A DNA stretch of 34,944 nucleotides, from NCBI GenBank assembly GCA_964449475.1, contig CAYUZD010000001.1, positions 1 through 34,944 of the forward strand, in the 5' to 3' direction. Positions 3,489-26,993 of this stretch are shown here, in pieces. A model generated the notes under the pieces. The model made no database searches, was not told the origin of the DNA, and was given only the letters and a program-made list of their open reading frames with translations. This DNA comes from an uncultured Nitrospirales bacterium (lineage in GTDB: Bacteria > Hydrogenedentota > Hydrogenedentia > Hydrogenedentales > GCA-2746185). A program made the translations under genes and the position numbers. Position 1 is the stretch's first letter; each line of letters opens with the position of its first letter.

Positions 3489-3498
3489 GGGACACACG

Positions 3499-3789
3499 AT
3501 GCAATTGTTGCTGTTGTTCACGTTCGTACTGGCGATATTCCTCGGCTTCGAGCTGATTTCGAAGGTGCCGTCGCAGCTGCACACGCCGCTGATGTCGGGG
3601 TCGAACGCGATTTCCGGCATCACCATCGTCGGCGCGCTGGTCGCGGCGGGGAACGTCGAACACCACGGCCTGGCGACCGCGCTCGGCGCGCTTGCGGTCG
3701 CGCTGGCAATGATTAACGTGGTCGGCGGTTATCTTGTGACGGACCGGATGCTGACCATGTTCAAGTCCAAGGGTAAAGACGCGAAGTGA
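3499..3789 (+). CDS. pntAB: NAD(P) transhydrogenase alpha subunit part 2 (membrane dII-alpha)
   Basis: 96-aa hydrophobic protein with the motif HTPLMSGSNAISGI. GAGGGA RBS upstream. Positioned between pntAA and pntB. Confidence 0.9.
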   Translation: MQLLLLFTFVLAIFLGFELISKVPSQLHTPLMSGSNAISGITIVGALVAAGNVEHHGLATALGALAVALAMINVVGGYLVTDRMLTMFKSKGKDAK

Positions 3790-11691: not shown

Positions 11692-13734
11692 TCAGGATGC
11701 GGACGACGTCTGCGTCTGCCGCTTGAAGTACGAGTACAATTCCTTGAAACCGCCCTTTTCGGCCAGCGAGACGGCCGTCTCGCCGGAGTTGTTCCAGGTG
11801 AGCGGATCGGCGCCGCGTTCCACCAGCGCCCTCGCGAAGTCCACTTTGCCGGTTTCGCTGGCAAGGTGAAGCGGCGTGTTCCCGCGCGAATCCTTGACCT
11901 CAACGCGATATCCCGCGGCGATCATCGGTTCGAGGAGGTCGATTCGGCCGTCCTTCGCGGCGATGTGGAGCGGGCCGCCGAGCGGACTCTTGGTATCGGG
12001 CGTTGCGAAACCGTTCTTGAGGAGCATCAGCGCGACTTCGTCGGTTGAATTGAGTACCGCGGTCTCGATCGGGCTGCGGCCGGCACCAAGCCAGGCGCCC
12101 TTGTCGGCGCCGTACTCGAGAAGCACGCGCACGATTTCGGACTGATTGGTTTCCACCGCGATGGCGAGCGCGGATTCACCGTACAGCCCCTGAATTGAGA
12201 GCGCCTTGGGATCGTCCTGGCAATACTGCCGCACGCGGTCGGCATGTCCGAACCGGGCAGCATGCGTAACGTCGTATGGCACCCGGCCGACACCGCCGTC
12301 GTCGCTCGCGTTCGCGCCGGCATCCAGCAGCGCCTTGGCGACACGGCCGAGGGCGAGCGCGCGCTGCGAGGAACGCGGCAGCGACGCGACCGCCCTGGCG
12401 ACGCGATGCAGCGGAGTCCCCACACCTTCCATGCGCGCGTTGGGGTCTGCGCCCTGAATCAGCAACTGGCGGAGCTGTTCCGTTTCATCCTTGCCGGCAT
12501 CCGGATCATCGTCCCTGCTGCGCTCGATGGCCTTGACCGCCTCCGCGGTCGCGTCATGCGCCAGTCGCGCGCCCTCTTCCGATGCGCCGACGTGCGCCCC
12601 ACGGTCAATGAGCGCGGCGAAAAGCTCGTCGTCCGACTGGGCATAGGCGACGGATAGCGCGGTGCGGCCTGTATTGTCGCGCGCATTTATGTCCGCGCCG
12701 GCGTCGAGCAGGAGCCGGACGATGTCGGTCCGGCGCGCCTCGGCCGCGAGATGGAGCGGCGTGAGCTCGTTCTCATCACGCGCCTGGACATCGGCCTTTG
12801 CTTTGACGAGCACCAAGACGATCTCGGGCCGGGCCGACGCCGCGGCGAGCATGAGCGGCGTCCTGCCGTTCGCGTCCTTGGCGTCGATCTCAGCCTTGCG
12901 GCTGCGGGCGAGTTCCGTTGCGAGTTTGGTCATGCCCCGGTCGGCCGCCAGGTGCAGCGCGGTCGCGCCGTCTTCCGTCGTGGCGGTCGTGTTCCCAGCG
13001 AACTGAATCAATTGTGTCGCGAGGGATTCATCGTTGGAAGCGATGGCCGCGAGTTGGATCCGGCTCATCAGCGCGCCCAATCTGTCGGTTGAGCTGGTAA
13101 ACGTCGTCGAGGCTTCGACACGCGCATATCGGACGGCTATAAGATTGACGGTGAGCAGAATTAGGATGACGAGTCCGCTGCCCACGTTGGCGCGGACCGC
13201 GATCGATCTATTGCGAAGCGAGTTCAGATACAGGACCGCGATGCACGCCCCGCCCAGAATGCCGGAGGCGAACCCGACGATGCCCGTGAGTCCTTCGCCC
13301 TGATCGGTGACCGCATAGAGACGATCAAGGTCGCGCCGAATGACTTCGGAATTGGCCAGTCGCATTGACGCGGTGAGACTGTCGATCTTTCCGCGGATGG
13401 CGGTCAGGCTTTCGAGTGCCGCCAGGTCGGAACGACTCTGCAGGTCGAACACGCGCGGCATCGCGATCGTAAACACGAGCGGCACCATCAATGCGAGCAA
13501 CGTCGCCCGAACGTAATGCTCGCGACGGAATCGGAATCGACGTGCGGGTGGCGCGCCAGTGGCTGACCGTGGCGCAGCGGCAGGCGTTGAAACCAACTCC
13601 AGCTCCGCGGACGACTGTGCACGGGACCGGACACTCCGGAAACACGCAGGACACACGTTTCCGGAGATAAGTTTCGTGATTTCAGTGACTTGCCCGCATT
13701 TTGGGCAGGTCACGTCCCCTTCGGCGACGGACAC
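11692..13734 (-). CDS. membrane-anchored ankyrin-repeat protein with N-terminal zinc ribbon
   Basis: CPKCG-x16-CPAC at the N-terminus, three hydrophobic segments, then ~10-12 ankyrin repeats (G.TALHLAA, GRTPLMLAA, LTPLHLAAE, GNTPLHLAS...). GTG start. Confidence 0.8.
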   Translation of the reverse strand: MSVAEGDVTCPKCGQVTEITKLISGNVCPACFRSVRSRAQSSAELELVSTPAAAPRSATGAPPARRFRFRREHYVRATLLALMVPLVFTIAMPRVFDLQSRSDLAALESLTAIRGKIDSLTASMRLANSEVIRRDLDRLYAVTDQGEGLTGIVGFASGILGGACIAVLYLNSLRNRSIAVRANVGSGLVILILLTVNLIAVRYARVEASTTFTSSTDRLGALMSRIQLAAIASNDESLATQLIQFAGNTTATTEDGATALHLAADRGMTKLATELARSRKAEIDAKDANGRTPLMLAAASARPEIVLVLVKAKADVQARDENELTPLHLAAEARRTDIVRLLLDAGADINARDNTGRTALSVAYAQSDDELFAALIDRGAHVGASEEGARLAHDATAEAVKAIERSRDDDPDAGKDETEQLRQLLIQGADPNARMEGVGTPLHRVARAVASLPRSSQRALALGRVAKALLDAGANASDDGGVGRVPYDVTHAARFGHADRVRQYCQDDPKALSIQGLYGESALAIAVETNQSEIVRVLLEYGADKGAWLGAGRSPIETAVLNSTDEVALMLLKNGFATPDTKSPLGGPLHIAAKDGRIDLLEPMIAAGYRVEVKDSRGNTPLHLASETGKVDFARALVERGADPLTWNNSGETAVSLAEKGGFKELYSYFKRQTQTSSAS

Positions 13735-14343: not shown

Positions 14344-15297
14344 ATGAATAAGCACAAGCAGGGTTTCACCCTGATTGAATTACTGGTCGTCATTGCCATC
14401 ATCGGAATACTCGCGGCGATCCTGTTACCGGCGTTGGCGCGTGCGCGCGAAGCGGCGCGCCGAGCGAGTTGTCAGAACAATCTGAAACAGATCGGGCTGT
14501 CGCTCAAGATGTACGCGAACGAGACGCGCGGTGAACGGTTCCCGCGGCTGCAGATAACGAATTGCGTGCCGGAAGTGCACGCCGCATGGAACTGGATGTT
14601 CGACATGACGGCGATGTATCCGGAGTACCTGCCGGATCTCGACGTGCTGATTTGCCCGAGTTCGCTTGGCGGCTCAACCGCCATCGAGCGATGGGATGAA
14701 GGCGATACGGAAAGCCCGCTTTGGGACCCCGTGTCGAACCCGCTGTTGGGCGTGTCGAACGACGGGAAGCTGACCGGCTGCGAAGTGGTCGACCATCCGT
14801 ATTACTACTACGGCTGGGCGCTGCATCGGAACATGTTCCGGTCGCTGACGGAATTCGTCGTACTGGAGGAGGCGCTGATCTTCAACTACGAAGAGCGAAT
14901 CGATCCGTTTGCAGATGCCGATGACATCGAAGGCGCGCAGGACTTCGTCGACGGTTCACTCGTGCTGGAGACCGCGCCGGACGTCTTTGGCACGATTGAC
15001 GGGCGGGACCGGCTCGAACGGCTGCGCGAGGGGATCGAACGGTTCTTTATCACCGATATCAACAACCCTGGCGCGTCGGCCCAGGCGGCGTCGGATCTCG
15101 TGGTGATTCACGACGCGATTTCACCGGAAGCAGATCACTTCAACCACGTTCCGGGCGGAGCGAACGTCTTGTACATGGACGGCCATGTGGAGTTCCAGCG
15201 CTGGATTCCGTCGCCGGAAAACGTTGGCGGTCAATTCCCGGTAAACGGCGCGGGACTTGTTCTACACGAAGTACCCGAGGAGTTAATCGGGCAGTAG
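14344..15297 (+). CDS. prepilin-type N-terminal cleavage/methylation domain protein, DUF1559 / H-X9-DG family (type II secretion pseudopilin-like)
   Basis: [27 protein letters not shown] prepilin motif directly after MNKH. C-terminal [17 protein letters not shown] matches the H-X9-DG signature. The track start at 13987 is a long Arg-rich spurious extension. Confidence 0.85.
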
Positions 15298-15315: not shown

Positions 15316-15344
15316 GCGGCGGCCGGAGCGCGTCCGGCCGCCGC
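15316..15344 (+). terminator. strong GC hairpin downstream of the prepilin-like gene (terminator-like, no clear U-tract)
   Basis: 12-bp perfect stem GCGGCGGCCGGA (15316-15327) / TCCGGCCGCCGC (15333-15344) with a 5-nt loop. The following sequence is T-poor. Confidence 0.4.
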
Positions 15345-15417: not shown

Positions 15418-15963
15418 ATGAATCAAACGATTGCCCACGATCCCGGCATCCGCCCCGTTGTAATCCGAATCCTCGCGCTGAGCGCCACAGCATTCGCGTT
15501 CTTGGTGTGGTTGCTGTACTTCCGCGGGGAGCGCGACCCGAACCCGGACGCGCTGTCGTTCCTGCCGGCGGTGAACGCCGGCTTAAACGGACTCGCCGCG
15601 GCGTGCATCATGGCCGGGTTCGTCGCGATCCGCACGGGACACAAGCGGCTGCACATGACGCTGATGATCAGCGCGGTGTCGCTGTCGGTCGTGTTCCTCG
15701 CGAGCTACATCACCTACCACAACATTCACGGCGACACGAAGTTTCTGACCGAGGGGTTCATCCGCTACGTATACTTCTTCATTCTGATCTCGCACATCGG
15801 ATGCACCGTGTTTGCGCTACCGCTGATCATGAGCGCCGTGTATTTCGCGGCGACGAAGCGGTTCGAGTTGCACAAGCGGGTGACGAAGTACACGGTTCCG
15901 ATCTGGCTCTACGTATCGATCACCGGCGTGGCCATCTACTTCTTGTTGCGCGCGAACTCCTGA
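15418..15963 (+). CDS. DUF420-family integral membrane protein (CtaM/YozB-like)
   Basis: 181 aa with 4-5 TM segments. LPAVNAGLNGLAA..., ITYH..HG and ILISHI...LP pattern typical of DUF420. Confidence 0.75.
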   Translation: MNQTIAHDPGIRPVVIRILALSATAFAFLVWLLYFRGERDPNPDALSFLPAVNAGLNGLAAACIMAGFVAIRTGHKRLHMTLMISAVSLSVVFLASYITYHNIHGDTKFLTEGFIRYVYFFILISHIGCTVFALPLIMSAVYFAATKRFELHKRVTKYTVPIWLYVSITGVAIYFLLRANS

Positions 15964-15971
15964 CCCGCCGG

Positions 15972-16550
15972 TCAGGCGTGGAGCTTGCGGAGCGTCGCGA
16001 CCAGTTTCCGCCCGAGGTTTTCGACGCCTTCCTGTTGCTTGGGATCCTTGAGCCGCCCGTCCGCGTCGAATACTTCGTGGGCCTTCGAGATGGCAAGTTG
16101 ATCCGGCAGCACTAGTACCTGGATGTTACCGAGGATCGCGCGCACATGCACCAGTCCGCGCAGGCCGCCGAGCGCGCCGGGCGAGGCGCTCATCAGAACG
16201 GCCGTCTTGCCCGCGAACGCCTTCAGCGGCGGATCGCCGAGCTCAGCGCGCGATGCCCAGTCGATCGCGTTCTTCAGCAGCGGCGTGATCGAGCTGTTGT
16301 ATTCGGGCGCGGCGATCAGGAACCCGTCGTGCCCGATGAGCAGGTTGCGAAACGTCCGGACGTGCGCCGGTAGGCCGTGGGCGGCCTCGTCGTCCTGATC
16401 GAACATTGGGAGCGGAAGCGCGTCCCAATCCACGATCGTGACCTGCGCGCCTGCGTCCCGTGCGGCGCTGGCCGCGATGCGGACGAGCCGCGTATTGAAC
16501 GAATCCATTCGCCGGCTTCCGGAGAATGCGACTACTTTTGGCGTATACAT
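15972..16550 (-). CDS. NAD(P)H-dependent FMN reductase family oxidoreductase
   Basis: KVVAFSGSRRMDSFNTRL... and FLIAAPEYNSSITPLLKNAIDW, the flavodoxin-like FMN_red signature. GGGAGA RBS. Confidence 0.85.
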   Translation of the reverse strand: MYTPKVVAFSGSRRMDSFNTRLVRIAASAARDAGAQVTIVDWDALPLPMFDQDDEAAHGLPAHVRTFRNLLIGHDGFLIAAPEYNSSITPLLKNAIDWASRAELGDPPLKAFAGKTAVLMSASPGALGGLRGLVHVRAILGNIQVLVLPDQLAISKAHEVFDADGRLKDPKQQEGVENLGRKLVATLRKLHA

Positions 16551-16580
16551 ACTTGGACTCTCCCACGCGTTGTCGACACG

Positions 16581-17369
16581 TTACACAATAACGGTCGGGT
16601 TGCCGTCCGGTACGCAGAGATACCGATCGAAGTCGGTGTAACCCAACGCGCGGAGAAAATCCTCGTCGATCAACGCCTGTCCGTTGGAGCGTTCAGGATG
16701 CTGAACGATTTCATACGAGGCATCGGCCAGAATGTCGGCCTTGCGCCAGACACTGGGATCTCCGAGCTGGAAATTGATCGTGGCGTAGGATTCGATGAGC
16801 GTCTTCGGCCAAAGTGCGGTCGCGCGGATGTTCAGCGAGCCGAATTCCTTGGGCAGGCCGTGCGCGATCATGGTCATGCCGAACTTGCTGATGCAGTAGC
16901 CGATGTGGCCGGGGAGCATGTCCATCGTGATCGGTGGCGACATCACGATGACATGACCGGAGTTCTGCCGCTTCATCGCCGGCAGGAAGGCGGCGGTCAC
17001 GGCGAAGGACCCGCGTACGTTCACGTTCATCATCAGGTCGAAGCGCTTCATCGGCGTTTCGTCCATCGTCTTCCACCAGAGCGCGCCGGCGTTGTTGATG
17101 ACGACGTCGACCCGGCCAAACCTGTCGAGCGCCACCTGCGCGGCCTGGTCTACGCTTTGCAGGTCGGTCACATCGCAGCGGACGGGGAACACCTCGGTGC
17201 CGTGCCGCGAGACCTCGTCCGCGGCGGTAAAGATCGTGCCGGGGAGCTTTGGGTTTTCCTCGGTGGTCTTTGCGGCGATGACAATGTCGTAGCCGGCCTG
17301 GGCGAATCGGTGCGCGCACGCCTTGCCTATGCCGCGCGACCCGCCGGTGATGAATGCGACCTTGCTCAT
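16581..17369 (-). CDS. short-chain dehydrogenase/reductase (SDR), HSDL2-like
   Basis: FITGGSRGIGKA cofactor motif, NNAGA, Y-x3-K (YCISKFG). The start ATG overlaps the upstream hydrolase stop (ATGA). Confidence 0.88.
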   Translation of the reverse strand: MSKVAFITGGSRGIGKACAHRFAQAGYDIVIAAKTTEENPKLPGTIFTAADEVSRHGTEVFPVRCDVTDLQSVDQAAQVALDRFGRVDVVINNAGALWWKTMDETPMKRFDLMMNVNVRGSFAVTAAFLPAMKRQNSGHVIVMSPPITMDMLPGHIGYCISKFGMTMIAHGLPKEFGSLNIRATALWPKTLIESYATINFQLGDPSVWRKADILADASYEIVQHPERSNGQALIDEDFLRALGYTDFDRYLCVPDGNPTVIV

Positions 17370-18238
17370 GGCGACTCCTCCACTACTGTATTGGCCTCAG
17401 CGGCCCTTGCGAGCCTCTCGACGGCGCTGCGTACGTCGGTTTCCGCGTTCCACGGGATGAAATGGTTCTTGCCCTCAAGGACGACGGTGTCCACAATCTG
17501 CCCGGTCGGAAAGTTCCGCTCCATGAACGCGACATTCGAGAACGGCACCAGGATGTCGTCCGGCGCGTGGAGGATGATAACAGGACAGGCGATCCCGGCG
17601 AGCCGTGGTTGCAGCGATTCGAGTTCGGCCTTCATCGGCAACAGCTCGCGGTTGCTGTTTCGCAGGAACCGCGGGATCATGTAGGCGATCACGGGAAGAT
17701 TGGCGATGCATTGATACCAGGCGACTTTTTCCTCCGCCGGGTCGAGCGAACCCGAGAGGATGACGAGGCCCCCGACGCGGCCGGGATAATCAGCCGCCAC
17801 TTGCGCGACGATGGGTCCGCCGAGGGAATGGCCGATGAGGACGGGCCAGCGTCCACCTCGCTGGACGAGGAACGGCTCGATGCACTCGGCTTGTTCGCGA
17901 AGCGTGAGCGCCGGTCGCCGGGGCCGGGTGCGGCCGAATCCGGGGCGATCGATCGAGATCGACTCGAAGCCCGGGATGGGCGACTGCACATATGAGCGGA
18001 ACGCGTTTGCATCGCCCGGGGTGCCGTGGACATAGATGAGTCGCGGCGCATCGGCCGCAGCTGCCGGTTGCCGGATGTAACTGATTGACCAGCCTACTGG
18101 TACTTCCAACTGTCCGCGCACGACGTCCTCGGCGTCCTCGGTTTCAACGATCGCGTCGAAGACCTGGCACGATCCGATCTCGAACACGATCAAGGCGAGC
18201 AACGCGACGCCCAGCTTCCACAAGCGACTCCGACGCAT
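17366..18238 (-). CDS. alpha/beta-fold hydrolase with N-terminal membrane anchor
   Basis: GHSLGG nucleophile elbow and HGTPGD oxyanion region. I prefer ATG 18238 (MRRSRLWKLGVALLALIVF), which leaves 1 nt after the OlsA-like stop; the track start at 18301 would overlap that gene by 62 nt. Confidence 0.8.
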   Translation of the reverse strand: MRRSRLWKLGVALLALIVFEIGSCQVFDAIVETEDAEDVVRGQLEVPVGWSISYIRQPAAAADAPRLIYVHGTPGDANAFRSYVQSPIPGFESISIDRPGFGRTRPRRPALTLREQAECIEPFLVQRGGRWPVLIGHSLGGPIVAQVAADYPGRVGGLVILSGSLDPAEEKVAWYQCIANLPVIAYMIPRFLRNSNRELLPMKAELESLQPRLAGIACPVIILHAPDDILVPFSNVAFMERNFPTGQIVDTVVLEGKNHFIPWNAETDVRSAVERLARAAEANTVVEESP

Positions 18239-18239
18239 G

Positions 18240-19076
18240 CTAGGCGCGGTCGCGGCTGGCTTCCAGCAACCCAGCGACGGCTTCGCGCGCCTTCGCGGCA
18301 AGCGCTTTGCGGTCGGCGCCGGTCTCCGTGGGGATCGGATCGCCGAAGCTGACCGTCACGCGAATGCCGCGCAGACCGATCGCGCGCCAGGCGTGCGTGA
18401 CGAAGTTGTGTTCAGGCCGCCAGTAGGCGACGTCTTCCGAGATGCTCAGCGACGACGAGTCGACGAACCAGTTCAACGCGACGGGAACGATCGGCGTGCC
18501 GGTGTCAACGGCGGGCTGCGCGAGCGACGCATAGAAGGGAAGCATGCGCGAGCCGTCCGTGGACGTCCCCTCGAGGAAGACACACACCCTCAGTCCGCCG
18601 TCGAGGCGTTCGGCGATAGAGGCGTTGACGCCGCTGAGGCTGCGGCGATCGGAACGCATGACGCCGATGTGCTCCGACATATCGAATAAGTGGCCCACGA
18701 CGGGCCACGACCGCACGTCCGCCTTCGAGACGAAGACCGCGGGGCAGGCGGCGCCGACCGCGAGAATGTCGAGATACCCCAGGTGATTCGGCACGAGCAA
18801 CGCGGGCGCCGGGGGAAGCGAACCGCGCACGTCGATCCGAATACCGGCGATCGGCGCGCCGCGGCGCAGCCAGCGATGGGTCCATTCCGCTGACCGTGCG
18901 CGCTTCTCGGCGCGATCGGAAGTCGCGGCGCGGCTCACGAGACAGCCGCAGTAGCAATACAGCGTCCACGCGGCGAAACCGCCGAGGCGCGCGATGGCGA
19001 GCAGCGGGTTCGACCATGCGCGGGCCGCGGGGCGTGCTTCGGACGGCGAATCCGCGCCCACTTCTCCGGGATTCAT
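18240..19076 (-). CDS. lysophospholipid/lyso-aminolipid O-acyltransferase, PlsC family (OlsA-like)
   Basis: H-x4-D motif NHLGYLD and the FLEGTSTDG motif, with an N-terminal hydrophobic segment. 4-nt start/stop overlap with the upstream OlsB-like gene. Confidence 0.8.
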   Translation of the reverse strand: MNPGEVGADSPSEARPAARAWSNPLLAIARLGGFAAWTLYCYCGCLVSRAATSDRAEKRARSAEWTHRWLRRGAPIAGIRIDVRGSLPPAPALLVPNHLGYLDILAVGAACPAVFVSKADVRSWPVVGHLFDMSEHIGVMRSDRRSLSGVNASIAERLDGGLRVCVFLEGTSTDGSRMLPFYASLAQPAVDTGTPIVPVALNWFVDSSSLSISEDVAYWRPEHNFVTHAWRAIGLRGIRVTVSFGDPIPTETGADRKALAAKAREAVAGLLEASRDRA

Positions 19077-19915
19077 TCCAATACGTCCAGCCGCGAGAGC
19101 GCCACCTGTTTACCGTCCATCATGACGAGAAAATCCACGGTGCCGAAATCGCGATCGATGGCGGGTTCGGAAACGACGACCGAGCCGAGCTTCAGATAGG
19201 TGCGAAACAGTTTGGGCAATTTGAGCGCGGGTCCGAGATCCGGGGCCAACTCACGTTCGGGAGGACCGCAGGAATGGCTCGGGCGCGCACGGACGAGGAC
19301 GTCGGCATGCAAGCAGTTTCCTTCACGGACGGTTTTCATCGCGCGCCAGCCGTCGTCGGGATCTTGCGTGGTCAGGGAACAACAGCCGAACAGATACCGC
19401 GAGCCATAAGCGTTCATGAATCCGCCGATACCGAGCCACATGGTGATCATCGCGCGGAAGTTTCGATGATCCGCGGCGAGGCACGCGCGTCCGAGTTCGA
19501 TGCTCTCGGCAAAATAGGGTTCAAGCGGCGCGAGGTCGTATTCCTCGGCGCAGTAGACTCCGCCGGTCGCGAGAGCGTGTTGAATGGTCTGCAAGCGATA
19601 CGTGCCCACCACACGACCGGACTCGCGGTGAATCAGGACGAGGTGCGTCATCTGTTCGTCGTAGCGATCTCGATCCAGCCCGATCGCCATCGACGACGCG
19701 AGGCCCTCCTCCAATTCGAGATTGAACACCTCGAATCGCAATCGCTGGGCCGCCTCGACGCAGCGCCGGGAGTTGGCGAAGCCCGCGACGTAGCGGTCCG
19801 CGGGCGTGTGCGGCAGCGCGAGGAAGTCCACGTCGCGCGGGCGGCGCTCGAAGTCCTCCGCGCTGGAAAACGCGCCCCAGGACAGCCTGCCTTCCTCGCG
19901 TTCTACGTGGGCCAT
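19073..19915 (-). CDS. GNAT-type N-acyltransferase of the OlsB / 'hemolysin-like' family (amino acid N-acyltransferase for aminolipid synthesis)
   Basis: AQRLRFEVFNLELEEGL, DRYDEQMTHLVLIH..GRVVGTYRL, YCAEEYDL and IELGRACLAADHRN match the OlsB-like family pattern. Paired with a PlsC-type gene as in olsBA. The amino acid substrate cannot be read from the sequence. Confidence 0.75.
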   Translation of the reverse strand: MAHVEREEGRLSWGAFSSAEDFERRPRDVDFLALPHTPADRYVAGFANSRRCVEAAQRLRFEVFNLELEEGLASSMAIGLDRDRYDEQMTHLVLIHRESGRVVGTYRLQTIQHALATGGVYCAEEYDLAPLEPYFAESIELGRACLAADHRNFRAMITMWLGIGGFMNAYGSRYLFGCCSLTTQDPDDGWRAMKTVREGNCLHADVLVRARPSHSCGPPERELAPDLGPALKLPKLFRTYLKLGSVVVSEPAIDRDFGTVDFLVMMDGKQVALSRLDVLE

Positions 19916-19948
19916 GGGTCGTTGCTCGAGATGCCGGCGGGCGCAGCG

Positions 19949-21601
19949 TCAACCGGCCATAGGATAGTTGCGTGCAAGACGGTGGTAGCTTATCACATCC
20001 CTAAGGAATTGAACGGGGCCGATCGGCTTGTGACCGGTCCGGCGATTGATGTCTCCGATACCGAACAAGATTCGGTACTGTTCGAACAGGGTGCTGTACG
20101 CATCGGACAGCGCGGCATCGGCGTCCCAGATATGGGTCGCTTCGGCGCCCGCGCCATTGATCTCCACGATCAAGAATCCCTCGCCGCGCTGAAAAGATTC
20201 CAAGTCGCGGAAGCGGATGTCGAAACGGCCGAAGTAGAACTGCGGTAGGGACTGCGCGATTTCGTCGATGCGCGCAGTGAGCGCGGGCGTGAGCACGTGC
20301 AGACCGTCCTTGAAGATGCAGCCCTGCGCGTGGTTCCCGGCGAAGACCAGCGGGAACTTCTGGCCGTCGGGTATGATGCGGTCGAGCGTGGCCTCGTGTC
20401 GCTTGAAGTACACCTCGGCGATCAGCCGGGCGCGGTCGTCGGCCTGAATCAGCTCGCGCAGCGATCGGCGGCCGTCGCCCACAACCACCGGGAACTCCTT
20501 GAGCGTGATGGAGATCACGCGCCCGCGCTCCTCGTGCGGCATCCGGTAATACATCACGCCGGCCTCATGCTGGAATGGCGCGAGTGTTTGCAACACGAGC
20601 AGATTGCCGCGCGGGAAGACCGAGAAATAGTCGCGAAGTTCGTCGGCGGTGCGCACCGGCCGCACTCCGGCGCCGCGCTGGCCCATGTCGGGCTTGGCGA
20701 CAATCGGGAACGTAATGCCGGCGGCCGCGAGCGCGTTCAACGCATCGCCGACATGGGTATCGACGGGCAGGCCGTCGTCGCTGTAAAAAAAAGTCGTGTG
20801 TGGAGCGACCCAACGGCGCGAGATCTCCGGGACGAGCGCGAGAATCTGGCTCTTGGACTCCCGGATCATGCCGCCGGAATAGATGGATGGGTTGACGGAG
20901 GTGGGCAGCGTGAGGCTCCGATAGCGAAGCGCGAGCCAGAAGTAATACGCCGCGACCGGCGTGTAGAACAGCCAGGGGTGCCAGAACTCGAAGAACGACG
21001 CGGGCGCCTCCTCCGCGGAGACACTCTCGGGGTCCGTGCTCATTTGCTTGTACGACCGGCGCTGGATGTACATGACCGCGGCGATGAGCGCGATGCCGAT
21101 GGGCCACTTCAGATCGCCGAGAATCGGCATGACGGCGCTGCCGACCCGCGAGATCAGCGTGAGTACGATGAAGTTCCACAGCAGCGAGGCAAAGAGGGCG
21201 GACGGGAGATACGTCCGCAGGCTCGCGCGCGCCATGCCTGCGGCGATGTTCGCAGGCAATCGAAGCCCCGGGACGAACCGCGAGACGAGGATGGCGGTGA
21301 ACATGTTCTCGTCGAACCAGACGCGGATGCGCTCGAGCCGGGCCTGCGAAACGAATTTCCAGGCAACGAGCTTCGGTCCCAGGAAGCGCCCGGCGACGTA
21401 CAGCCCCCAGTCGCCCACCCCGATGCCGATCGACATGCTGACGAGCGCGGTGGAGTACGCCATGCTGCCATCGGCGACGAGCAGACCGACGGCGATAATC
21501 GTCGGGTCTTCGAGTACGAAGCTGCACGCGATCGCGAGCATGCCCTGAAGGATCGGGTCGTTCGAGAGTGCGTGCAGTGCCCGATCGAACAGTTCGGCCA
21601 C
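19949..21601 (-). CDS. fusion protein: N-terminal DedA/VTT (SNARE-associated) membrane domain plus C-terminal ATP-grasp carboxylate-amine ligase domain
   Basis: The N-terminal ~175 aa is DedA-like (EDPTIIAVGLL..., SRFVPGLRLPANIAAG), followed by extra TM segments. The C-terminal region has ATP-grasp motifs (PIVAKPDMGQRGAGV, LVLQTL..HEAGVMYY, GRFDIRF...FLIVEINGAGAE). The GTG start lies 1 nt after the NRDE stop. Confidence 0.75.
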   Translation of the reverse strand: MAELFDRALHALSNDPILQGMLAIACSFVLEDPTIIAVGLLVADGSMAYSTALVSMSIGIGVGDWGLYVAGRFLGPKLVAWKFVSQARLERIRVWFDENMFTAILVSRFVPGLRLPANIAAGMARASLRTYLPSALFASLLWNFIVLTLISRVGSAVMPILGDLKWPIGIALIAAVMYIQRRSYKQMSTDPESVSAEEAPASFFEFWHPWLFYTPVAAYYFWLALRYRSLTLPTSVNPSIYSGGMIRESKSQILALVPEISRRWVAPHTTFFYSDDGLPVDTHVGDALNALAAAGITFPIVAKPDMGQRGAGVRPVRTADELRDYFSVFPRGNLLVLQTLAPFQHEAGVMYYRMPHEERGRVISITLKEFPVVVGDGRRSLRELIQADDRARLIAEVYFKRHEATLDRIIPDGQKFPLVFAGNHAQGCIFKDGLHVLTPALTARIDEIAQSLPQFYFGRFDIRFRDLESFQRGEGFLIVEINGAGAEATHIWDADAALSDAYSTLFEQYRILFGIGDINRRTGHKPIGPVQFLRDVISYHRLARNYPMAG

Positions 21602-21602
21602 G

Positions 21603-22376
21603 TTAGCGGGCCTTCGCGAGCGACCTCGCGGGCGCGAGCGGCAGGGAACAGTGCGCGCCCGGCTCGCGCGAGTCGGGAGCCGGCTCGGGCCAATAGCGCA
21701 ACTCGACGCGCCCCGACTCTGGAAGTATGCGGGCCTGCGTGATGCTGCGCGTAGCGGACCACGAGCGGCGCATCAGCGGCGAGCGTTCCGCGTGGCCGGG
21801 TTCCTGAATCAGGTGGAATGAGGGAAGCGTGCCGACGTGCGGCTCGCCTTCACGACGCCACTGCGCGAAGCGCTCCTCGCGCCAAAGCCGCACATCGAGA
21901 CTGTCCCAGCCGGACGACGATCGCAATACCCAATCCTCGACGAGTTCCGTCTCCGCCGGCCCGTGTTCGCCGAGCCACTCCCACGACACCGCGCCCTCAG
22001 GACTCGCGACCAGCAGCGTAAACGACGGGTAGGCATGCGGATCGAGCGAGTCGCGGAGCCAACGCCGCGCGGCGCGCCCGTCTCCCTGCGCCAGCAGCGT
22101 GGAGACAATCTCGCCGCGGGTGCGGAATCGTCCGGTTGTGTCGGGCAGGAGGCTCTCGCCCGGCTGATAGGCGTTGAGCAGGCACGCCACGACGCCGTAA
22201 TTGTTCACGCCCATCCAGGTCCCGCCGCGCTCACTGTCACGCGGGGCAATCCAGGCGACGCCGTCCGGCGCGTGCATAATCTCGGGCCGGAGTTCCGGTG
22301 CGCGAATTAGCGCCTCGTCCCGGTTCATCGTGGCGACAAGCGCGCCGTTCCCCCGGTAGATGGTGACGGTGCACAT
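21603..22376 (-). CDS. NRDE-family protein (TANGO2 homolog; Ntn-hydrolase-like with Cys2)
   Basis: Starts MCT..., contains the eponymous NRDE motif (ATMNRDE), and GGTWMGVNNYGVVACLLN. Confidence 0.8.
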   Translation of the reverse strand: MCTVTIYRGNGALVATMNRDEALIRAPELRPEIMHAPDGVAWIAPRDSERGGTWMGVNNYGVVACLLNAYQPGESLLPDTTGRFRTRGEIVSTLLAQGDGRAARRWLRDSLDPHAYPSFTLLVASPEGAVSWEWLGEHGPAETELVEDWVLRSSSGWDSLDVRLWREERFAQWRREGEPHVGTLPSFHLIQEPGHAERSPLMRRSWSATRSITQARILPESGRVELRYWPEPAPDSREPGAHCSLPLAPARSLAKAR

Positions 22377-22394
22377 GACGGCGATCTGGGACGC

Positions 22395-22919
22395 CTACCC
22401 TTTGACGGCTTGCTGGTGCGCGGCGGTGGAGAACGCCAGGGAGATTTCCTCGGGCAACTCGACATCGTGTTCGCGGCAGAGATGCACCACGATCGCGAGA
22501 TGGTGAATGGTGTGTCCGGAGAGGAACGCGAGCTCGCGCCCGACGGTGCTCTCGACGACGTCCGGTTCGGCGTCCAGCGAGACGGACTGCCGGACGCGCA
22601 GGGGAGTCGTCACCGATGACGCGGACACGGCGGCGAGTCCCGTGCGCACGTCCCGCAGTCTCTCGCGGAAGCAGTCGATGCTGCGCTCGAGCATCTCGTC
22701 ACGCGCGCGGGAATCGTAATCGACGATCCCGTCATTCAATCCCGCAAGGAAGCACTGGAAGTGTTCGAGCGCGTGGCGGAGATGCGAGCCCACGGGGTAG
22801 CGCCCCGGCAACGCGCCGGCGTACATCTCGGGCGTGATCGCGTCGATCACGCGCTCGCACCGGTCGCAGGCATCGAGACACCCGCGCACGGCCGCGCACT
22901 CAGAGTGGGTGGTGGACAT
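22395..22919 (-). CDS. DinB-family (DinB_2-like) metal-binding four-helix-bundle protein
   Basis: 174 aa with a His-triad pattern (SHLRHALEH ... GHTIHHLAIV) typical of DinB/YfiT-like proteins. Confidence 0.65.
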   Translation of the reverse strand: MSTTHSECAAVRGCLDACDRCERVIDAITPEMYAGALPGRYPVGSHLRHALEHFQCFLAGLNDGIVDYDSRARDEMLERSIDCFRERLRDVRTGLAAVSASSVTTPLRVRQSVSLDAEPDVVESTVGRELAFLSGHTIHHLAIVVHLCREHDVELPEEISLAFSTAAHQQAVKG

Positions 22920-23174: not shown

Positions 23175-23840
23175 ATGCGTGGTGTTTCGATGTTTTTGGG
23201 TCTTTCGTTGGTGCTGACGGCAATTCCGCTGTTCGCGGAAGAAGCCGGAAAGGTCCAGCTCGGTATTGAGTTGCCGGAGCCGTATTTCGGCGGCACGCCG
23301 CTGGACTATTTCGGGCCGAACCTCGAGGAACCGAACTACAAGCCGCGTCCGCCGTTCATGGTGCCGGAAGGAACCGAGAACGTGGCCAAGGGCAAGCCGG
23401 TAACCGCGAGTTCCGCAACGCAGTTCGGCGACCTGGCCATGCTGGTGGACGGCGACAAGAGCTACAAGGACGAGAGCCTGCTGGGACTCGATCGCGGACA
23501 CCAGTGGATTCAGATCGACCTGGGTGCGGCGTACGATATTTACGCGGTGCTTTTCTGGCACTTCCACCAAGGGGATCGGGTGTACTTTGACGTGGCGATC
23601 CAGGTGGCGGACGATGCCGCCTTCACGCAGAACGTGCGGACGATTTTCAACAACGATCACGACGACACCGCGGGTATGGGCGCGGGCAAGGACAAGGAAT
23701 ACATCGAGAACTATCGCGGCAAATTCTTCGACACCGGCGGCGTGAAGGCACGGGCCATCCGGTTCCTCAGCAAGGGGAACACGACGGACGACTTCAATCA
23801 TTACGTCGAAGCGGAAGTGTTCGGCAAGCCGGCCGAGTAA
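23175..23840 (+). CDS. secreted discoidin (F5/8 type C, galactose-binding-like) domain protein
   Basis: Signal peptide MRGVSMFLGLSLVLTAIPLFA. NVAKGKPVTASS...LVDGD...WIQIDLG..YDIYAV is the classic discoidin opening. AGGAAAGG RBS. Confidence 0.75.
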   Translation: MRGVSMFLGLSLVLTAIPLFAEEAGKVQLGIELPEPYFGGTPLDYFGPNLEEPNYKPRPPFMVPEGTENVAKGKPVTASSATQFGDLAMLVDGDKSYKDESLLGLDRGHQWIQIDLGAAYDIYAVLFWHFHQGDRVYFDVAIQVADDAAFTQNVRTIFNNDHDDTAGMGAGKDKEYIENYRGKFFDTGGVKARAIRFLSKGNTTDDFNHYVEAEVFGKPAE

Positions 23841-23852: not shown

Positions 23853-25442
23853 GTGTCCCGGCGCTGGTCGAGGCGCATCGCGCACGGCACCCCCTACGCC
23901 GCCATACTGCTGATCGCCGCCGCGGGGCTCGTGGTGCGATCGGCCGAACTCGAATACCGGCCGGTGCACGGGGACGAAGCGAACCAGGCGTACAAGGCCG
24001 GGAAGCTGCTCGATACGGGGCGGTACGTCTACGATCCCCACGACCACCACGGGCCGACGCTGTATTACCTCGCGCTCATTCCGTTCTACCTGACCGGCAC
24101 GAATTCGCTCGCCGATGCGGATACGTGGATGGTGCGGATCGTGCCGGTGGCGTTCGGCGCGGGCCTGATCGCGCTGCTCGCATTGGCACGCCGCGAGATC
24201 GGCACCGGCAGCGCGATCTGCTCGGGACTGATCCTGCTCGCCTCTCCCGCGTTTACGTTTTACTCCCGATACTTCATCCAGGAGACTTTGCTCGTCTTCT
24301 TCACGTTCGCCGCAATCGTGTTTGCCTTGCGGTATCTGCGGAGTCCGCGACTCGGATGGGCCATCGCGTTCGGAATCGCAATAAGCCTGATGCATGCGAC
24401 GAAGGAAACGACCGTCCTTGCCTACTCGGCGATGGCGGTGTCTGGTGTCGTTGTGTGGATGCTGCACGGCCGCACGAAGGATAAAGAGAGCGAGACCACG
24501 CAACCTTCGCTGCGCCATGGCGTGGCCGCAATCGGGGTAGCGCTCGCCGTCAATGTGGTGTTGTTCAGCGCGTTCTTCACGCACTGGCGCGGTCCGCTGG
24601 ACAGCGTCCTCACGTATGCAAACTATTTCGATCGTGCCTCCGGAAGCCACATCCATGACAAGCCGTGGTACTACTACCTCTCGCTGTTGTGGTACACGAA
24701 GCGCGCGCCGGGGCCGTGGTGGAGCGAGGGGCACGTGCTCGCGCTGGGGTTGGCAGGAATAGTTCTCGCGTTCATGCGGCCGCCGCGCGGCACGGAGGAC
24801 GCCGCGCCGTTCGCCCGGTTTCTCGCGCTGTACACGTTGCTGCTTGCAATCGCGTATTCAGTGATCCCCTACAAGACCCCGTGGAGCATGTTGAGTTTCT
24901 ATTTCGGTATTGTCTTGCTCGCGGGGATGGCCGTGTCACGCGCAGTCCACGTGGCACCTGCCGGGTGGCGCCGGGCGCTGGTGGTCATTGCGTTCGGGCT
25001 CGTGTTGACGCACCTAAGCGTTCAATCCTGGCGCGCGGAGACCGTCTACGCGGCAGACGTCCGCAATCCCTATGTATACGCGCATACATCGACGGCGTTG
25101 GTGCGCTTCGTCGATCAGGTCGAGGGCATCGCGGCGTCGAGCCCATCGGGCCGGAACGTGTCTATCAAGATCATTCAGCCTGATGCCGACTACTGGCCGC
25201 TTCCGTGGTATTTGCGCCGCTACCCTAACCTTCACTATGTCCATGGCGTACCGGAAGACGCCGACGCGGACATCGTGATAGTCGACCCGAGACTCATCGA
25301 CTCCGTATCCACAAGTTTCCAGGACGAGTACTTCGGTCCGTTCACCGCGGGCCTGCGTCCCGGCGTGCTGCGCGCCGTGTTCGTACGCGAGGACCTCTGG
25401 GAGGCGTACATGGACTCGCGCGGTGCCGTGTCCGACGACTAG
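23853..25442 (+). CDS. GT-C fold membrane glycosyltransferase (ArnT/PMT GT39/GT83-like, TIGR03663-type)
   Basis: 529 aa, ~11 TM segments, early periplasmic-loop motif VHGDEANQAYKA and a large C-terminal soluble domain. GTG start 12 nt after the discoidin gene stop. Confidence 0.7.
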   Translation: MSRRWSRRIAHGTPYAAILLIAAAGLVVRSAELEYRPVHGDEANQAYKAGKLLDTGRYVYDPHDHHGPTLYYLALIPFYLTGTNSLADADTWMVRIVPVAFGAGLIALLALARREIGTGSAICSGLILLASPAFTFYSRYFIQETLLVFFTFAAIVFALRYLRSPRLGWAIAFGIAISLMHATKETTVLAYSAMAVSGVVVWMLHGRTKDKESETTQPSLRHGVAAIGVALAVNVVLFSAFFTHWRGPLDSVLTYANYFDRASGSHIHDKPWYYYLSLLWYTKRAPGPWWSEGHVLALGLAGIVLAFMRPPRGTEDAAPFARFLALYTLLLAIAYSVIPYKTPWSMLSFYFGIVLLAGMAVSRAVHVAPAGWRRALVVIAFGLVLTHLSVQSWRAETVYAADVRNPYVYAHTSTALVRFVDQVEGIAASSPSGRNVSIKIIQPDADYWPLPWYLRRYPNLHYVHGVPEDADADIVIVDPRLIDSVSTSFQDEYFGPFTAGLRPGVLRAVFVREDLWEAYMDSRGAVSDD

Positions 25443-26176
25443 AGGGATCCGGTTGCGCGGTACGCTCCGCGCCAGGACCGGACGCGTACGCGCAGGACCT
25501 CGCGAATCATCACGAGCGTATGGCGAATCGGGCGTACGCGTGTGTCGGTTGAGTTAATCCACCGGACGGGTATCTCGACGACGCTGAAACCCTGTTGTTG
25601 CGCGGCGACGAGGAGTTCGCAGTCGGCGCCGAACCCGTCGATGACCAGCCTCGGGACGACGCGATCGCTCACGGCGCGGTCGAATGCCTTGAACCCACAT
25701 TGCGTGTCGCGAAAAGCCGTCAACCCAAGCACTCGCAGCAGCGTGTTGTACACGCGGCCCATAATGCGGCGGTGCCTGGGCTGTGGCACTTCGACGCGAC
25801 TGCCGGGCAATGCGCGGGATCCAATCACGACCGAGGCGCCCTTCGCGAGTTCTGCCCACACACGTTCGACTTCTTCGATCGGGGTCGACGCGTCGGCGTC
25901 GTAGATGAGACAGACCTCGCCGCGAGCGGCCCGCACCCCCTCGCGCGTGGCGTAGCCTTTGCCGCGATTTTGCGCATAGTGCACGACGCGAACGCCTGGG
26001 AACGCCTTCGACACAACCCCTGCCGTATCGTCGCCGCTTCCGTCGTCCACGACGATGATCTCGAACGCATAGGGTTGGGCGCGCAGATATCTCTCGGCCT
26101 TCTCGATGGTCGCGGACACCCTCGCGGATTCGTTGTACGTGGGGATAATGAGCGACAAACGAGGGGCGGGATTCAT
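25439..26176 (-). CDS. family 2 glycosyltransferase, polyprenyl-phosphate hexosyltransferase-like
   Basis: LSLIIPTYNES, IIVVDDGSGDDT, DAD and QCGFKAF motifs. ATG 26176 gives the canonical N-terminus; the track start at 26368 adds 64 atypical residues. Confidence 0.85.
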   Translation of the reverse strand: MNPAPRLSLIIPTYNESARVSATIEKAERYLRAQPYAFEIIVVDDGSGDDTAGVVSKAFPGVRVVHYAQNRGKGYATREGVRAARGEVCLIYDADASTPIEEVERVWAELAKGASVVIGSRALPGSRVEVPQPRHRRIMGRVYNTLLRVLGLTAFRDTQCGFKAFDRAVSDRVVPRLVIDGFGADCELLVAAQQQGFSVVEIPVRWINSTDTRVRPIRHTLVMIREVLRVRVRSWRGAYRATGSL

Positions 26177-26327
26177 GCGGACGGCGGCCAATGGGTTCGA
26201 AGCTTCGGAAAGAGCCGAACTGTAACAAATCGGGGGAGGCCGGACAACGGCGCCCCGCCGCTGTTGGGCGCCTTTTTTCCGCGCTTGCGTGCATATACAA
26301 TGCCAGGGCAGGTACGGAGCGGCTCGC

Positions 26328-26993
26328 ATGGACCCCTCGGACGGCGCACCCACCCTCGAACGCGGCATTCAGCCCCGGCGTCAACCGATGCAGCAGCGCA
26401 GCCGGGACCGCGTCGAGAAAATACTCGACGCCGCCGCGCAGTTGCTCGCCGAGGACGGCTACGACGCGGTGAAGACCAATGCGATCGCGGCGCGGGCCAA
26501 GGTGTCGATTGGGTCGGTCTACCAGTTCTTCCCGAACCGGTTCGCGATTTTCAATGCACTCGCGGAACGCTACCGGTCGAAGATCAGCGAGTCGTTGCGC
26601 ATCCACCTTGCGCCGGCGACGATCGACGATTGGGACGAGGCGCTCGAGAACACGATCGACAGTCTGGCGACGCTGTGGCGGACGGATTGGGCGTTCCACT
26701 CGGTATGGCTGGCCATTCAGAACACGGCGGAGCTGCGCGACTCGAGCGAACACTATCGCAGCGCGCTCATCACCAGTCCGCTTGCCGAGTTCCTGAAGCG
26801 GCTTCTGCCGGGGCTGCCTCGCAACCAGATTCTGACGATGGGCCGCGTGATTCTCGAGACGAGCAACCTTTTACTCGACCTCTCGATGCGCGGCGGACCG
26901 AATCAGGACGAGTCCATCATCGACGAACTCAAGTTCGTCCTGCATCGGTACATCCGGGGTCACATCGAGGCGGCGCGCGCGCCGCGCTCCTGA
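26328..26993 (+). CDS. TetR/AcrR-family transcriptional regulator
   Basis: RDRVEKILDAAAQLLAEDGYDAVKTNAIAARAKVSIGSVYQFFPNR is the TetR HTH signature. GGAG lies 8 nt before ATG 26328. Confidence 0.85.
   Translation: MDPSDGAPTLERGIQPRRQPMQQRSRDRVEKILDAAAQLLAEDGYDAVKTNAIAARAKVSIGSVYQFFPNRFAIFNALAERYRSKISESLRIHLAPATIDDWDEALENTIDSLATLWRTDWAFHSVWLAIQNTAELRDSSEHYRSALITSPLAEFLKRLLPGLPRNQILTMGRVILETSNLLLDLSMRGGPNQDESIIDELKFVLHRYIRGHIEAARAPRS

Follow-up and report, generated by a model that had tools for sequence, protein, structure and literature searches.

A conserved gene cluster joining an OlsB/OlsA-like acyltransferase pair to a DedA::ATP-grasp fusion, a candidate system for aminolipid head-group modification

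Why would a pair of aminolipid-type acyltransferase genes be packed into one run with genes for a DedA membrane domain fused to an ATP-grasp ligase, for two putative hydrolases and for a DinB-fold metalloprotein, and what could such proteins do together? The question is raised by positions 15,972 to 22,919 of a 34,944-nucleotide (nt) stretch (hereafter the window) of contig CAYUZD010000001.1, from an assembly labelled as an uncultured Nitrospirales bacterium and placed by GTDB in Hydrogenedentota. A first-pass annotation of the window had described eight minus-strand genes with tiny or negative spacers, built around an OlsB/OlsA-like pair, and had proposed a pathway to a modified aminolipid in which the ATP-grasp protein extends or amidates the head group. 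The coordinates and spacers turned out to be exactly as described there. In gene order, the run of eight co-directional open reading frames comprises the following, with protein lengths in amino acids (aa):

22395-22919, minus strand: gene 1, DinB-fold metalloprotein, 174 aa
21603-22376, minus strand: gene 2, NRDE/TANGO2-family protein, 257 aa, putative N-terminal-cysteine (Ntn) hydrolase
19949-21601, minus strand: gene 3, DedA::ATP-grasp fusion, 550 aa, GTG start
19073-19915, minus strand: gene 4, OlsB-like N-acyltransferase, 280 aa
18240-19076, minus strand: gene 5, OlsA-like (PlsC-type) O-acyltransferase, 278 aa
17366-18238, minus strand: gene 6, alpha/beta-hydrolase with an N-terminal membrane helix, 290 aa
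16581-17369, minus strand: gene 7, short-chain dehydrogenase/reductase (SDR) oxidoreductase, 262 aa
15972-16550, minus strand: gene 8, NADPH-dependent flavin mononucleotide (FMN) reductase, 192 aa, the last of the run

The spacers between successive genes are 18, 1, 33, -4, 1, -4 and 30 nt, and the two 4-nt overlaps join the OlsA-like to the OlsB-like gene and, as an ATGA, the SDR to the hydrolase gene. For the hydrolase we took the ATG at 18238 as the start; the mechanical call had placed it at a TTG at 18301. Plus-strand genes flank the run on both sides (a DUF420 protein at 15418-15963 and an F5/8-type-C protein at 23175-23840), and the run is therefore bounded. Terminator-like sites found by pattern scan of the region were at or below chance (2 against 5.2 expected from shuffles), which is compatible with a single transcript but no proof of one. 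Profile hidden Markov model searches against Pfam and NCBIfam bore out the TANGO2/NRDE, VTT/DedA, Acetyltransf_5, PlsC-type, Abhydrolase_1, SDR and FMN_red labels, and the DinB and ATP-grasp labels, which fell short of Pfam recognition, were secured by predicted structure and Foldseek (for ATP-grasp also by a profile search of the Protein Data Bank, PDB). Judged from its layout and from the comparisons below, the region is an operon with a conserved core of six genes, DinB to hydrolase, and two lineage-specific redox genes.

The conservation of the core was assessed by a scan anchored on the fusion protein, with one genome per species, which found 319 encoding stretches. From these, 78 loci were fetched and compared by tblastn with the eight window proteins. 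Partners were counted when they lay within 5 kb of the fusion gene, in the 43 loci that had at least 2.5 kb of sequence upstream and at least 3 kb downstream. An OlsB-like gene was present in 36 of the 43 loci, a DinB gene in 26, an alpha/beta-hydrolase gene in 16, and an NRDE gene and a separate OlsA gene in 15 each. The full order DinB-NRDE-fusion-OlsB-OlsA-hydrolase was found in loci labelled Hydrogenedentota (e.g., L004, L005, L007, and L016). The order was kept, with the hydrolase gene not detected, in Sumerlaeota (L011 and L045), some Acidobacteriota (L025 and L058) and other metagenome-assembled genomes (MAGs), and in L025 the DinB and NRDE genes were missing as well. The neighbourhood is thus shared well beyond this genome, and the arrangement is far beyond chance, because the same gene order recurs across phyla.

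The association is not tied to one form of aminolipid synthase. In many Acidobacteriota, the weak "OlsB" match about 1 kb downstream of the fusion gene proved to be a fused OlsF-type synthase (Acyltransf_2 plus Acetyltransf_5; L021). OlsF-type partners were also found in L127 and L084, and a Geobacter MAG (L079) carries DinB-like, TANGO2, DoxX and OlsF genes, with the fusion gene further on. The OlsF-like proteins of the Acidobacteriota and Geobacter loci reached 350-418 bits on the NCBIfam OlsF model (cut-off 620) and scored much lower on GlsB and GlsA. A set in Burkholderiales comprises a divergent OlsB-like gene together with hydrolase, DedA, ATP-grasp and DinB genes. Partnership with two aminolipid synthase architectures, OlsBA and OlsF, indicates that the link is to the lipid rather than to one gene.

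Searches that started from other members of the cluster recovered the same cluster. An NRDE-anchored metagenome scan returned 40 loci. Where the NRDE homologue was at least 50% identical, DinB-NRDE-fusion was found wherever enough sequence followed the NRDE gene, with the OlsB, OlsA and hydrolase genes where the sequence extended further; in two of these loci the DinB gene would lie off the start of the contig, and the shortest contigs stop with the NRDE gene itself. Some of the NRDE homologues at 41-48% identity occurred in DinB-NRDE-OlsF units with no local fusion gene (L099 and L100) and in DinB-NRDE pairs (L120 and L122). Two further loci were anchored on distant DinB homologues (L127 and L128, 34 and 41% identity, respectively). 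L127 has the order DinB, fusion, OlsF. L128, a metagenome contig, has the order DinB, TANGO2, fusion, Acetyltransf_5, Acyltransferase, Abhydrolase, between unrelated flanks (upstream, molybdopterin genes; downstream, a MarC gene on the opposite strand), and it is a clean six-gene unit ending at the hydrolase. By homology and gene order, then, the six-gene core is conserved across many bacterial phyla, and its genes are very probably functionally linked. This agrees with the description of the cluster as built around an OlsB/OlsA-like pair, as the association of the DedA::ATP-grasp, NRDE, DinB and hydrolase genes with OlsBA or OlsF is conserved in many lineages.

Among the loci with the same order and fusion proteins 57-80% identical to that of the window, the MAG labels conflict ("Nitrospirales", "Rhodothermaeota", and "Hydrogenedentales"; L029, L043, L064, L051, and L054 versus L001-L008). 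Some of these MAG bins are probably mislabelled. The organism behind the window is most likely Hydrogenedentota-like.

The acyltransferase pair itself is of a known kind. The OlsB-like protein has an Acetyltransf_5 domain (PF13444; 92.6 bits, E 2.9e-26, aa 59-160) and the OlsA-like protein a PlsC-type Acyltransferase domain (PF01553; 77.2 bits, E 1.3e-21) with an intact HX4D motif (H98-LGYL-D103). Both domains, the adjacent genes with a 4-nt overlap and full-length matches to the NCBIfam models are shared with the OlsB/OlsA(OlsF) pathway. The scores are well below the equivalog cut-offs, with 134.6 bits against 350 (NF052554) and 110.2 against 320 (NF052555) for OlsB, and 117.9 against 300 for OlsA. 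Because of this distance, the window proteins can be assigned by sequence to the OlsB/OlsA kind, and ornithine specificity cannot be claimed for them.

The protein that sets this locus apart is the fusion, which can be divided into three parts:

21032-21601, minus strand: DedA/VTT membrane domain, aa 1-190 (Pfam VTT_dom and hydrophobic helices)
20918-20998, minus strand: aromatic "FEFW..P..FY.PV" helix, aa 202-228, at the joint from DedA to ATP-grasp (invariant residues and model)
19952-20917, minus strand: ATP-grasp ligase domain, aa 229-550 (PDB profile and Foldseek)

The DedA domain is recognised by VTT_dom (PF09335; 65.5 bits, cut-off 33.9, aa 33-150). Among 25 homologues, E31, D32, D64, R72, R108, P111, G112 and R114 are invariant, and because charged residues embedded in the membrane are kept in this way, the domain is probably an active transporter or scramblase and not a passive anchor. 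The linker that follows (aa 192-203) is basic and then acidic, and is modelled at a low predicted local distance difference test (pLDDT) score. In the aromatic segment, S202, F204, E205, F206, P209, F212, Y213 and P215 are invariant, and residues 209-226 are modelled as a helix. Stand-alone ATP-grasp homologues of 350-390 aa begin to match at this very segment; the ligase would therefore be tethered to the membrane in every form, and the keeping of a membrane helix even in stand-alone ATP-grasps points to a lipid substrate.

No Pfam ATP-grasp model matched the C-terminal 320 residues, VTT_dom being the sole Pfam match in the fusion protein, and one fusion homologue gave a weak ATP-grasp_3 match below cut-off. 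A profile of 25 homologues searched against PDB sequences matched cyanophycin synthetase CphA2 (8fxh, 1.8e-6), along with CphA1 and Ddl. The AlphaFold2 model of the fusion (pLDDT 85.8) had as top Foldseek matches CphA2 (7ta5), CphA1 (7wae), GshF (3ln7) and Ddl/VanA, with E down to 7e-10 and with only about 10-21% identity in the fold alignments. The motifs K303-P-D-x-G-Q-R-G-A-G, G458-R-F-D461 and E480-I-N482-G are invariant; K303 corresponds to the ATP-binding Lys and E480-x-N482 to the Mg-site motif. Since profile, fold comparison and invariant motifs agree, the prediction that the C-terminal half has an ATP-grasp fold stands, and it falls in the branch whose members join amines to carboxylates. 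Catalysis by the CphA G domain, GshF and Ddl/VanA proceeds via an acyl phosphate, made from a carboxylate, to which an amine or a hydroxyl is then added. With the CphA1/CphA2 G domain, the GshF ATP-grasp and Ddl, its best profile and fold matches, the window protein shares the ATP-binding Lys and the E-x-N Mg site; unlike them, it is membrane-tethered and fused to DedA. Membership of the cyanophycin synthetases was considered and rejected, as only a G-like region (aa 292-483) aligns and the NCBIfam score is 23.1 bits against a cut-off of 850; the Mur-ligase-like M domain and the N domain of those enzymes are both missing from the fusion protein.

More than 1,000 homologues with the 550-aa DedA::ATP-grasp architecture were detected, of nearly constant length and, where named, labelled only "DedA family" or "VTT domain-containing", and otherwise "hypothetical". 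When aa 197-550, the ATP-grasp part, served as the HMMER query on 1.84 billion representatives, 1,116 clusters (50% identity) were returned at E <=1e-30. These fell into three length classes: stand-alone proteins of about 350-390 aa, DedA fusions of about 520-590 aa, and proteins of 720-1121 aa. The domain make-up of the long class was determined with Pfam on ten of its members. Six representatives are ABhydrolase::VTT::ATP-grasp proteins with the hydrolase at the N-terminus. The longest, P0330 (1121 aa), is a TANGO2::ABhydrolase::VTT::ATP-grasp protein that begins MCTV...NRDE, with one helix, which follows a stretch of Arg residues, between the TANGO2 and hydrolase domains. Its gene is flanked by a DinB_2 gene and an OlsF-type gene (L084). 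In L086, DinB_2 and TANGO2 genes are followed by an ABhydrolase::VTT::ATP-grasp gene. The split form also exists, as DedA and ATP-grasp are separate, overlapping genes in Ideonella alba. That four of the six core functions occur in one polypeptide is strong evidence that they act together.

Also at L084, a gene for a bacterial TMEM164-family protein (7436-8209) adjoins the OlsF-type synthase and the P0330 fusion gene. The eukaryotic TMEM164 family is a lipid acyltransferase family.

The placement of the remaining core proteins relative to the membrane bears on what they could act on. The hydrolase matched Abhydrolase_1 (72 bits, E 7.9e-20) with an intact G-H-S138-L-G motif, and it has a single N-terminal hydrophobic helix (aa 6-24) after a basic MRRSR. 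The N-terminus was also considered as a lipobox, which was set aside as not canonical (Glu at position -4), and it is treated here as a putative membrane anchor. By the positive-inside rule, given the basic stretch before the helix, the catalytic domain would face outward and is probably extracytoplasmic. The TANGO2 protein needs a free N-terminal Cys and the ATP-grasp domain needs ATP, and both should therefore be cytoplasmic. The DinB, NRDE, OlsB-like, SDR and FMN reductase proteins have no hydrophobic segments.

The NRDE protein matched the Pfam TANGO2 family (PF05742; 51.3 bits, cut-off 22.6, E 2.4e-13), and its profile matched human TANGO2 structures in the PDB (9bwa and 8sv7, E 5e-8). 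It begins with MC (Cys2), and the N18-R19-D20-E21 motif is conserved. A crystal structure of human TANGO2 (2026) led to the proposal of a Cys-Ntn hydrolase fold related to bile-salt hydrolase, acid ceramidase and NAAA; the human protein binds acyl-CoA and no substrate has been defined (PMC13044924). The window protein is accordingly read as having a Cys-Ntn hydrolase fold and as a putative amidase. It shares with human TANGO2 and with HtpA (SO0126) of Shewanella the Pfam family, the N-terminal Cys and the NRDE motif, and differs from them in that its gene is embedded in a set of lipid-modifying enzyme genes and, elsewhere, fused to them. For HtpA, haem trafficking was reported in a 2023 paper; a term search of its text turned up nothing on a gene neighbourhood of this type. 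A similar haem role here has no support from the context, since no haem or cytochrome-maturation genes occur in the window's cluster; one Geobacter locus (L079) has a CCP_MauG gene nearby. TANGO2 homologues are not exclusive to the module, as NRDE homologues at 42-46% identity were found in unrelated contexts (L101 and L104-L119). These contexts include UbiA prenyltransferase, M50 peptidase, metallophosphatase and nucleoside symporter genes; in L107, the frame of the homologue (2908-3588) is open for about 480 codons upstream of its Met-Cys start.

The DinB protein scored 24.5 bits on Pfam DinB_2, just below the gathering cut-off of 24.8; many close homologues have a precomputed PF12867 match. 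Its alignment profile matched nothing meaningful among PDB sequences. The AlphaFold2 model, built on 24 homologues, had a pLDDT of 93.5, and the top 26 Foldseek matches were all DinB, YfiT or mycothiol S-transferase (MST) structures. The His triad (H46, H136, and H140) is conserved, and with H49, Y68, D69, R71, R128, E129 and H139 it is invariant in the cluster-linked homologues. As the predicted fold matches DinB structures and the triad is kept, the DinB label stands, with a modelled four-helix bundle and a His metal triad.

Do the last two genes of the operon belong to the same pathway? The first-pass annotation had suggested that the SDR and the FMN reductase oxidise or hydroxylate the product, and this part of it did not hold. 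The family labels themselves are secure: the SDR scored 142 bits on adh_short and 295.8 bits on NCBIfam PRK08278 (cut-off 250), with TGxxxGxG at aa 8 and YxxxK at aa 158, and the FMN reductase scored 136.6 bits on FMN_red (PF03358; cut-off 24, E 6.5e-40). An SDR partner was found in 4/43 loci, all of them close relatives, and an FMN reductase partner in 2/43. The loci in which the two genes go with the cluster are limited to L001 (SDR only), L029, L043, L051 and L088, whose fusion proteins are 63-80% identical to that of the window. Throughout the window's lineage the flanks are syntenic as well (DUF420, F5/8-type-C, PMT-like glycosyltransferase, SecDF, and ankyrin protein). Conservation of the two genes in the four closest loci was therefore rejected as functional evidence, as equally syntenic flanks leave it without functional information. 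The SDR and the FMN reductase are probably lineage-specific add-ons and not pathway members, as gene content across the loci indicates, and the six-gene unit of L128 likewise ends at the hydrolase. In this organism, the ATGA shared by the SDR and hydrolase genes is suggestive of co-expression.

Taken together, the core could work as follows. Following the logic of the OlsBA pathway, the OlsB-like protein would N-acylate an amino acid with a 3-hydroxyacyl chain, and the OlsA-like protein would O-acylate the product to give an acyloxyacyl amino-acid lipid. The tethered ATP-grasp domain may then phosphorylate the free head-group carboxylate of the lipid or of its lyso form and ligate an amine or amino acid to it, so that the head group would become amidated or of a dipeptide type. 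Both the CphA G domain and glutathione synthetase use N-blocked residues whose C-terminal carboxylate is free, and in chemical terms an N-acyl amino acid is such a residue. The fused DedA domain would move the lipid between leaflets, and the outward hydrolase, the cytoplasmic Cys-Ntn TANGO2 amidase and the DinB metalloenzyme could trim, edit or recycle it and so control its level. As a whole, this carboxylate-extension mechanism is our tentative reading, to which we give somewhat less than an even chance. Head-group extension or amidation by the ATP-grasp protein, the core of the earlier proposal, fits its nearest structural relatives, all of them carboxylate-amine ligases. On balance, the earlier interpretation kept this core idea and the conserved neighbourhood, and lost the membership of the SDR and the FMN reductase and its link to the Ser-Gly lipids of Bacteroidota, for which no locus labelled Bacteroidales or Flavobacteriales was among those returned and which serves as an analogy.

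The division of labour proposed here resembles that of MprF, which combines synthase and flippase in one protein (PMC8131360). In the lpiA-acvB operon, the synthase is paired with a periplasmic hydrolase that controls the level of lysyl-phosphatidylglycerol (Lys-PG) (PMC13197417), and AcvB and PA0919 trim or control aminoacyl-phosphatidylglycerol (PMC8131360, PMC13197417). Common to MprF with its operon hydrolases (AcvB, PA0919, and AhyD) and to the window's cluster are a head-group-modifying and a lipid-translocating domain in one protein and a co-operonic hydrolase that probably faces outward. The likeness is one of architecture and logic only: the window has DedA/VTT in place of the MprF flippase (no MprF domain was found in the fusion protein by Pfam) and an ATP-grasp domain in place of an aminoacyl-tRNA-dependent transferase, and MprF acts on the glycerol of phosphatidylglycerol, whereas the presumed substrate here is the carboxylate of an aminolipid. 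A chemical precedent is cerilipin, for which transfer of taurine to the ornithine-lipid carboxyl is ATP-dependent and the gene is stated to be unknown (2026 ornithine-lipid review, PMC12971839). The ligase of Gluconobacter cerinus thus carries out an ATP-requiring amide formation on an ornithine-lipid carboxyl, as would be expected of an ATP-grasp enzyme beside OlsB/OlsA. No homologues of the ATP-grasp protein were seen in Gluconobacter or other Acetobacteraceae, at which no search was specifically directed. With the stand-alone ATP-grasp protein of Novosphingobium as query, the 120 matches listed were all at least 61% identical, and the few of them that bore a name were from Sphingomonadales.

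Other ways of joining the same parts were weighed against carboxylate extension. The ATP-grasp domain could work with the reverse polarity, activating a soluble amino acid as Ddl does and attaching it to the head-group amine, possibly the delta- or epsilon-amine of an ornithine or lysine lipid, to form an N-aminoacylated aminolipid. Ddl, VanA and L-amino-acid ligases are indeed strong fold matches too, and the OlsB- and OlsF-like partners match ornithine-lipid models best, ornithine and lysine lipids carrying a free amine. Yet the CphA G domain and the glutathione-synthetase part of GshF, which match best, act on N-blocked substrates and lengthen them at the C-terminal carboxylate, and a free amine on the head group is only assumed, so that we consider this polarity unlikely. 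Alternatively, the ATP-grasp domain might first make a soluble dipeptide or modified amino acid, which the OlsB-like protein would then N-acylate, with DedA a mere anchor or exporter. L-amino-acid ligases and Ddl are soluble dipeptide makers of the same fold class, and an OlsB-like protein this divergent from ornithine-specific OlsB could accept an unusual amine. Such an order of steps seems very improbable in view of the membrane helix conserved in fused, split and stand-alone ATP-grasps and of the invariant functional residues of DedA.

The two hydrolases and the transporter domain in the core, fused in P0330, are what one would expect of salvage or repair. LplT-Aas is a salvage system for lysophospholipids. 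In a comparable scheme, the hydrolase and TANGO2 proteins would degrade a (lyso-)aminolipid, DedA would return the fragments, and the ATP-grasp domain would re-activate the carboxylate set free, be it that of a fatty acid or of an N-acyl amino acid, so that it could be ligated again. The probable extracytoplasmic place of the hydrolase and the necessarily cytoplasmic one of the ATP-grasp domain would suit it, and ATP-grasp enzymes can make fatty acyl phosphates, e.g., in acyl-histidine synthesis (cited in PMC11631085). We assign this scheme a low probability, given that the synthase genes are translationally coupled within the operon, which suggests de novo synthesis, that no acyl-ACP synthetase or acyl carrier is present, and that the nearest ATP-grasp relatives use amino-acid or peptide carboxylates and not fatty acids. 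Finally, the DedA, ATP-grasp, hydrolase, TANGO2 and DinB proteins could form a general envelope-stress or redox-linked module acting on another carboxyl-bearing membrane molecule, with the aminolipid genes merely co-regulated. Sphingomonadales loci without a nearby OlsB gene agree with this, as do YHS-domain, peroxiredoxin, MsrB, NDH-2-like and DoxX genes that recur nearby, the fact that DinB/YfiT proteins are thiol transferases linked to stress, and the SDR and FMN reductase added in the window's lineage. The prevalence of the OlsB-like partner, which holds for the OlsBA and OlsF architectures alike, and the DinB-NRDE-OlsF units that occur with no fusion gene locally make it an improbable account.

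Several points weigh against carboxylate extension, or against the operon on which it builds. Co-transcription is predicted from the layout, and a pattern scan of the region found no sigma-70-like promoter. None of the OlsB-, OlsA- and OlsF-like proteins reaches its NCBIfam equivalog cut-off. Seven of the 43 loci have no OlsB-like gene nearby, and the same is true of Sphingomonadales loci, where none was found within 5 kb of the stand-alone ATP-grasp gene (L074 and L083). In the Novosphingobium locus (L074, 9965-12150), this gene overlaps a downstream PF00144 gene of the beta-lactamase fold, with an alpha/beta-hydrolase gene directly upstream and a DedA gene near. In the Glacieibacterium locus (L083, 8001-10156), it likewise overlaps a downstream PF00144 gene, with an unannotated 418-aa gene directly upstream, DedA near, YHS and peroxiredoxin genes also present and no hydrolase called. 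In the model, the topology of the junction from DedA to ATP-grasp is only putative, as the linker is of low confidence, and the membrane helix seems to stand where ATP-grasp enzymes usually have an N-terminal substrate domain, which weakens what can be concluded about the substrate from relatives. Two hydrolases and a DinB protein are not obviously needed in a purely biosynthetic pathway. The proposed product is hypothetical, and the homologues are uncharacterised.

With respect to published work, the locus is of a known kind, that of OlsBA aminolipid synthesis, to which a large accessory module, conserved and uncharacterised, is joined. None of the ols, gls and glu loci in the reviewed literature has DedA, ATP-grasp, TANGO2, DinB or alpha/beta-hydrolase partners, and full-text searches found no paper on an association of OlsB, aminolipids or ornithine lipid with ATP-grasp, DedA or TANGO2 as seen here. 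Reviews of 2024 and 2026 list no enzyme for ATP-dependent extension of an aminolipid head group; the former, on aminolipids, mentions ATP-grasp enzymes only as a theoretical route to activate fatty acids, and the latter treats glycine lipid as a flavolipin intermediate and names no serine-adding enzyme (PMC12971839). The module thus bears on three questions, namely the ligases of aminolipid head groups, the substrates of DedA proteins and the activity of TANGO2. A conserved ligase beside OlsB/OlsA or OlsF is a concrete candidate class for head-group extension, in an ATP-grasp family present in many phyla. The substrates of DedA proteins are debated, and a DedA domain fused to a lipid-modifying enzyme offers a defined system for transport study. 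Bacterial TANGO2 homologues that are operon partners of aminolipid enzymes, or are joined to them in one protein, point to N-acyl amino-acid lipids as a class of substrate that can be tested; a lipid-amide activity, if true, would reveal the ancestral activity of a family mutated in human metabolic disease. The most far-reaching form of the proposal combines two claims: that the membrane-tethered ATP-grasp protein, DedA-fused or DedA-coupled, founds a class of ATP-dependent aminolipid carboxylate ligases, enzymes of a type long sought for cerilipin and dipeptide lipids, and that these lipids are the substrates of the TANGO2 homologue, working as a lipid N-acyl-amide hydrolase or acyltransferase. 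We regard the combination as conceivable but rather doubtful.

Redox and metal genes occur near DedA/ATP-grasp genes in unrelated lineages, including genes for YHS, peroxiredoxin/redoxin, MsrB (SelR), an NDH-2-like flavoprotein, DoxX, CCP_MauG and DsbD (L079, 5299-7976 and 9665-13422; L083, 2047-5569; L070, 12079-12867). Their recurrence hints at a link to oxidative or copper stress, and such a link may explain why an SDR and an FMN reductase were appended in the window's lineage.

Other genes around the operon were also recorded. Upstream lie the F5/8-type-C gene (23175-23840, plus strand), a gene for a PMT/ArnT-like GT-C glycosyltransferase (23853-25442, plus strand) and one for a GT2 glycosyltransferase (25439-26368, minus strand). 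The first two are divergent from the operon. The set of three resembles a polyprenyl-phosphate-sugar envelope-modification set, and its synteny with the cluster holds in Hydrogenedentota-type relatives as distant as about 50% identity.

On the other side, a gene at 11692-13734 (minus strand) encodes a 680-aa protein made up mostly of ankyrin repeats, a size unusual for a bacterium, with a counterpart of 58% identity in L029. The product of the gene at 14350-15297 (plus strand) has a prepilin-type N-terminal methylation motif and a DUF1559 domain, and related copies lie near the cluster in L001, L029 and L043. DUF1559 prepilin-type proteins are abundant in Planctomycetota-like genomes. Between the DUF1559 and DUF420 genes, about 630 nt past the end of the FMN reductase gene, a strong GC-rich hairpin (15316-15344, minus strand) with 12 pairs, 11 of them G-C, is terminator-like on the minus strand.

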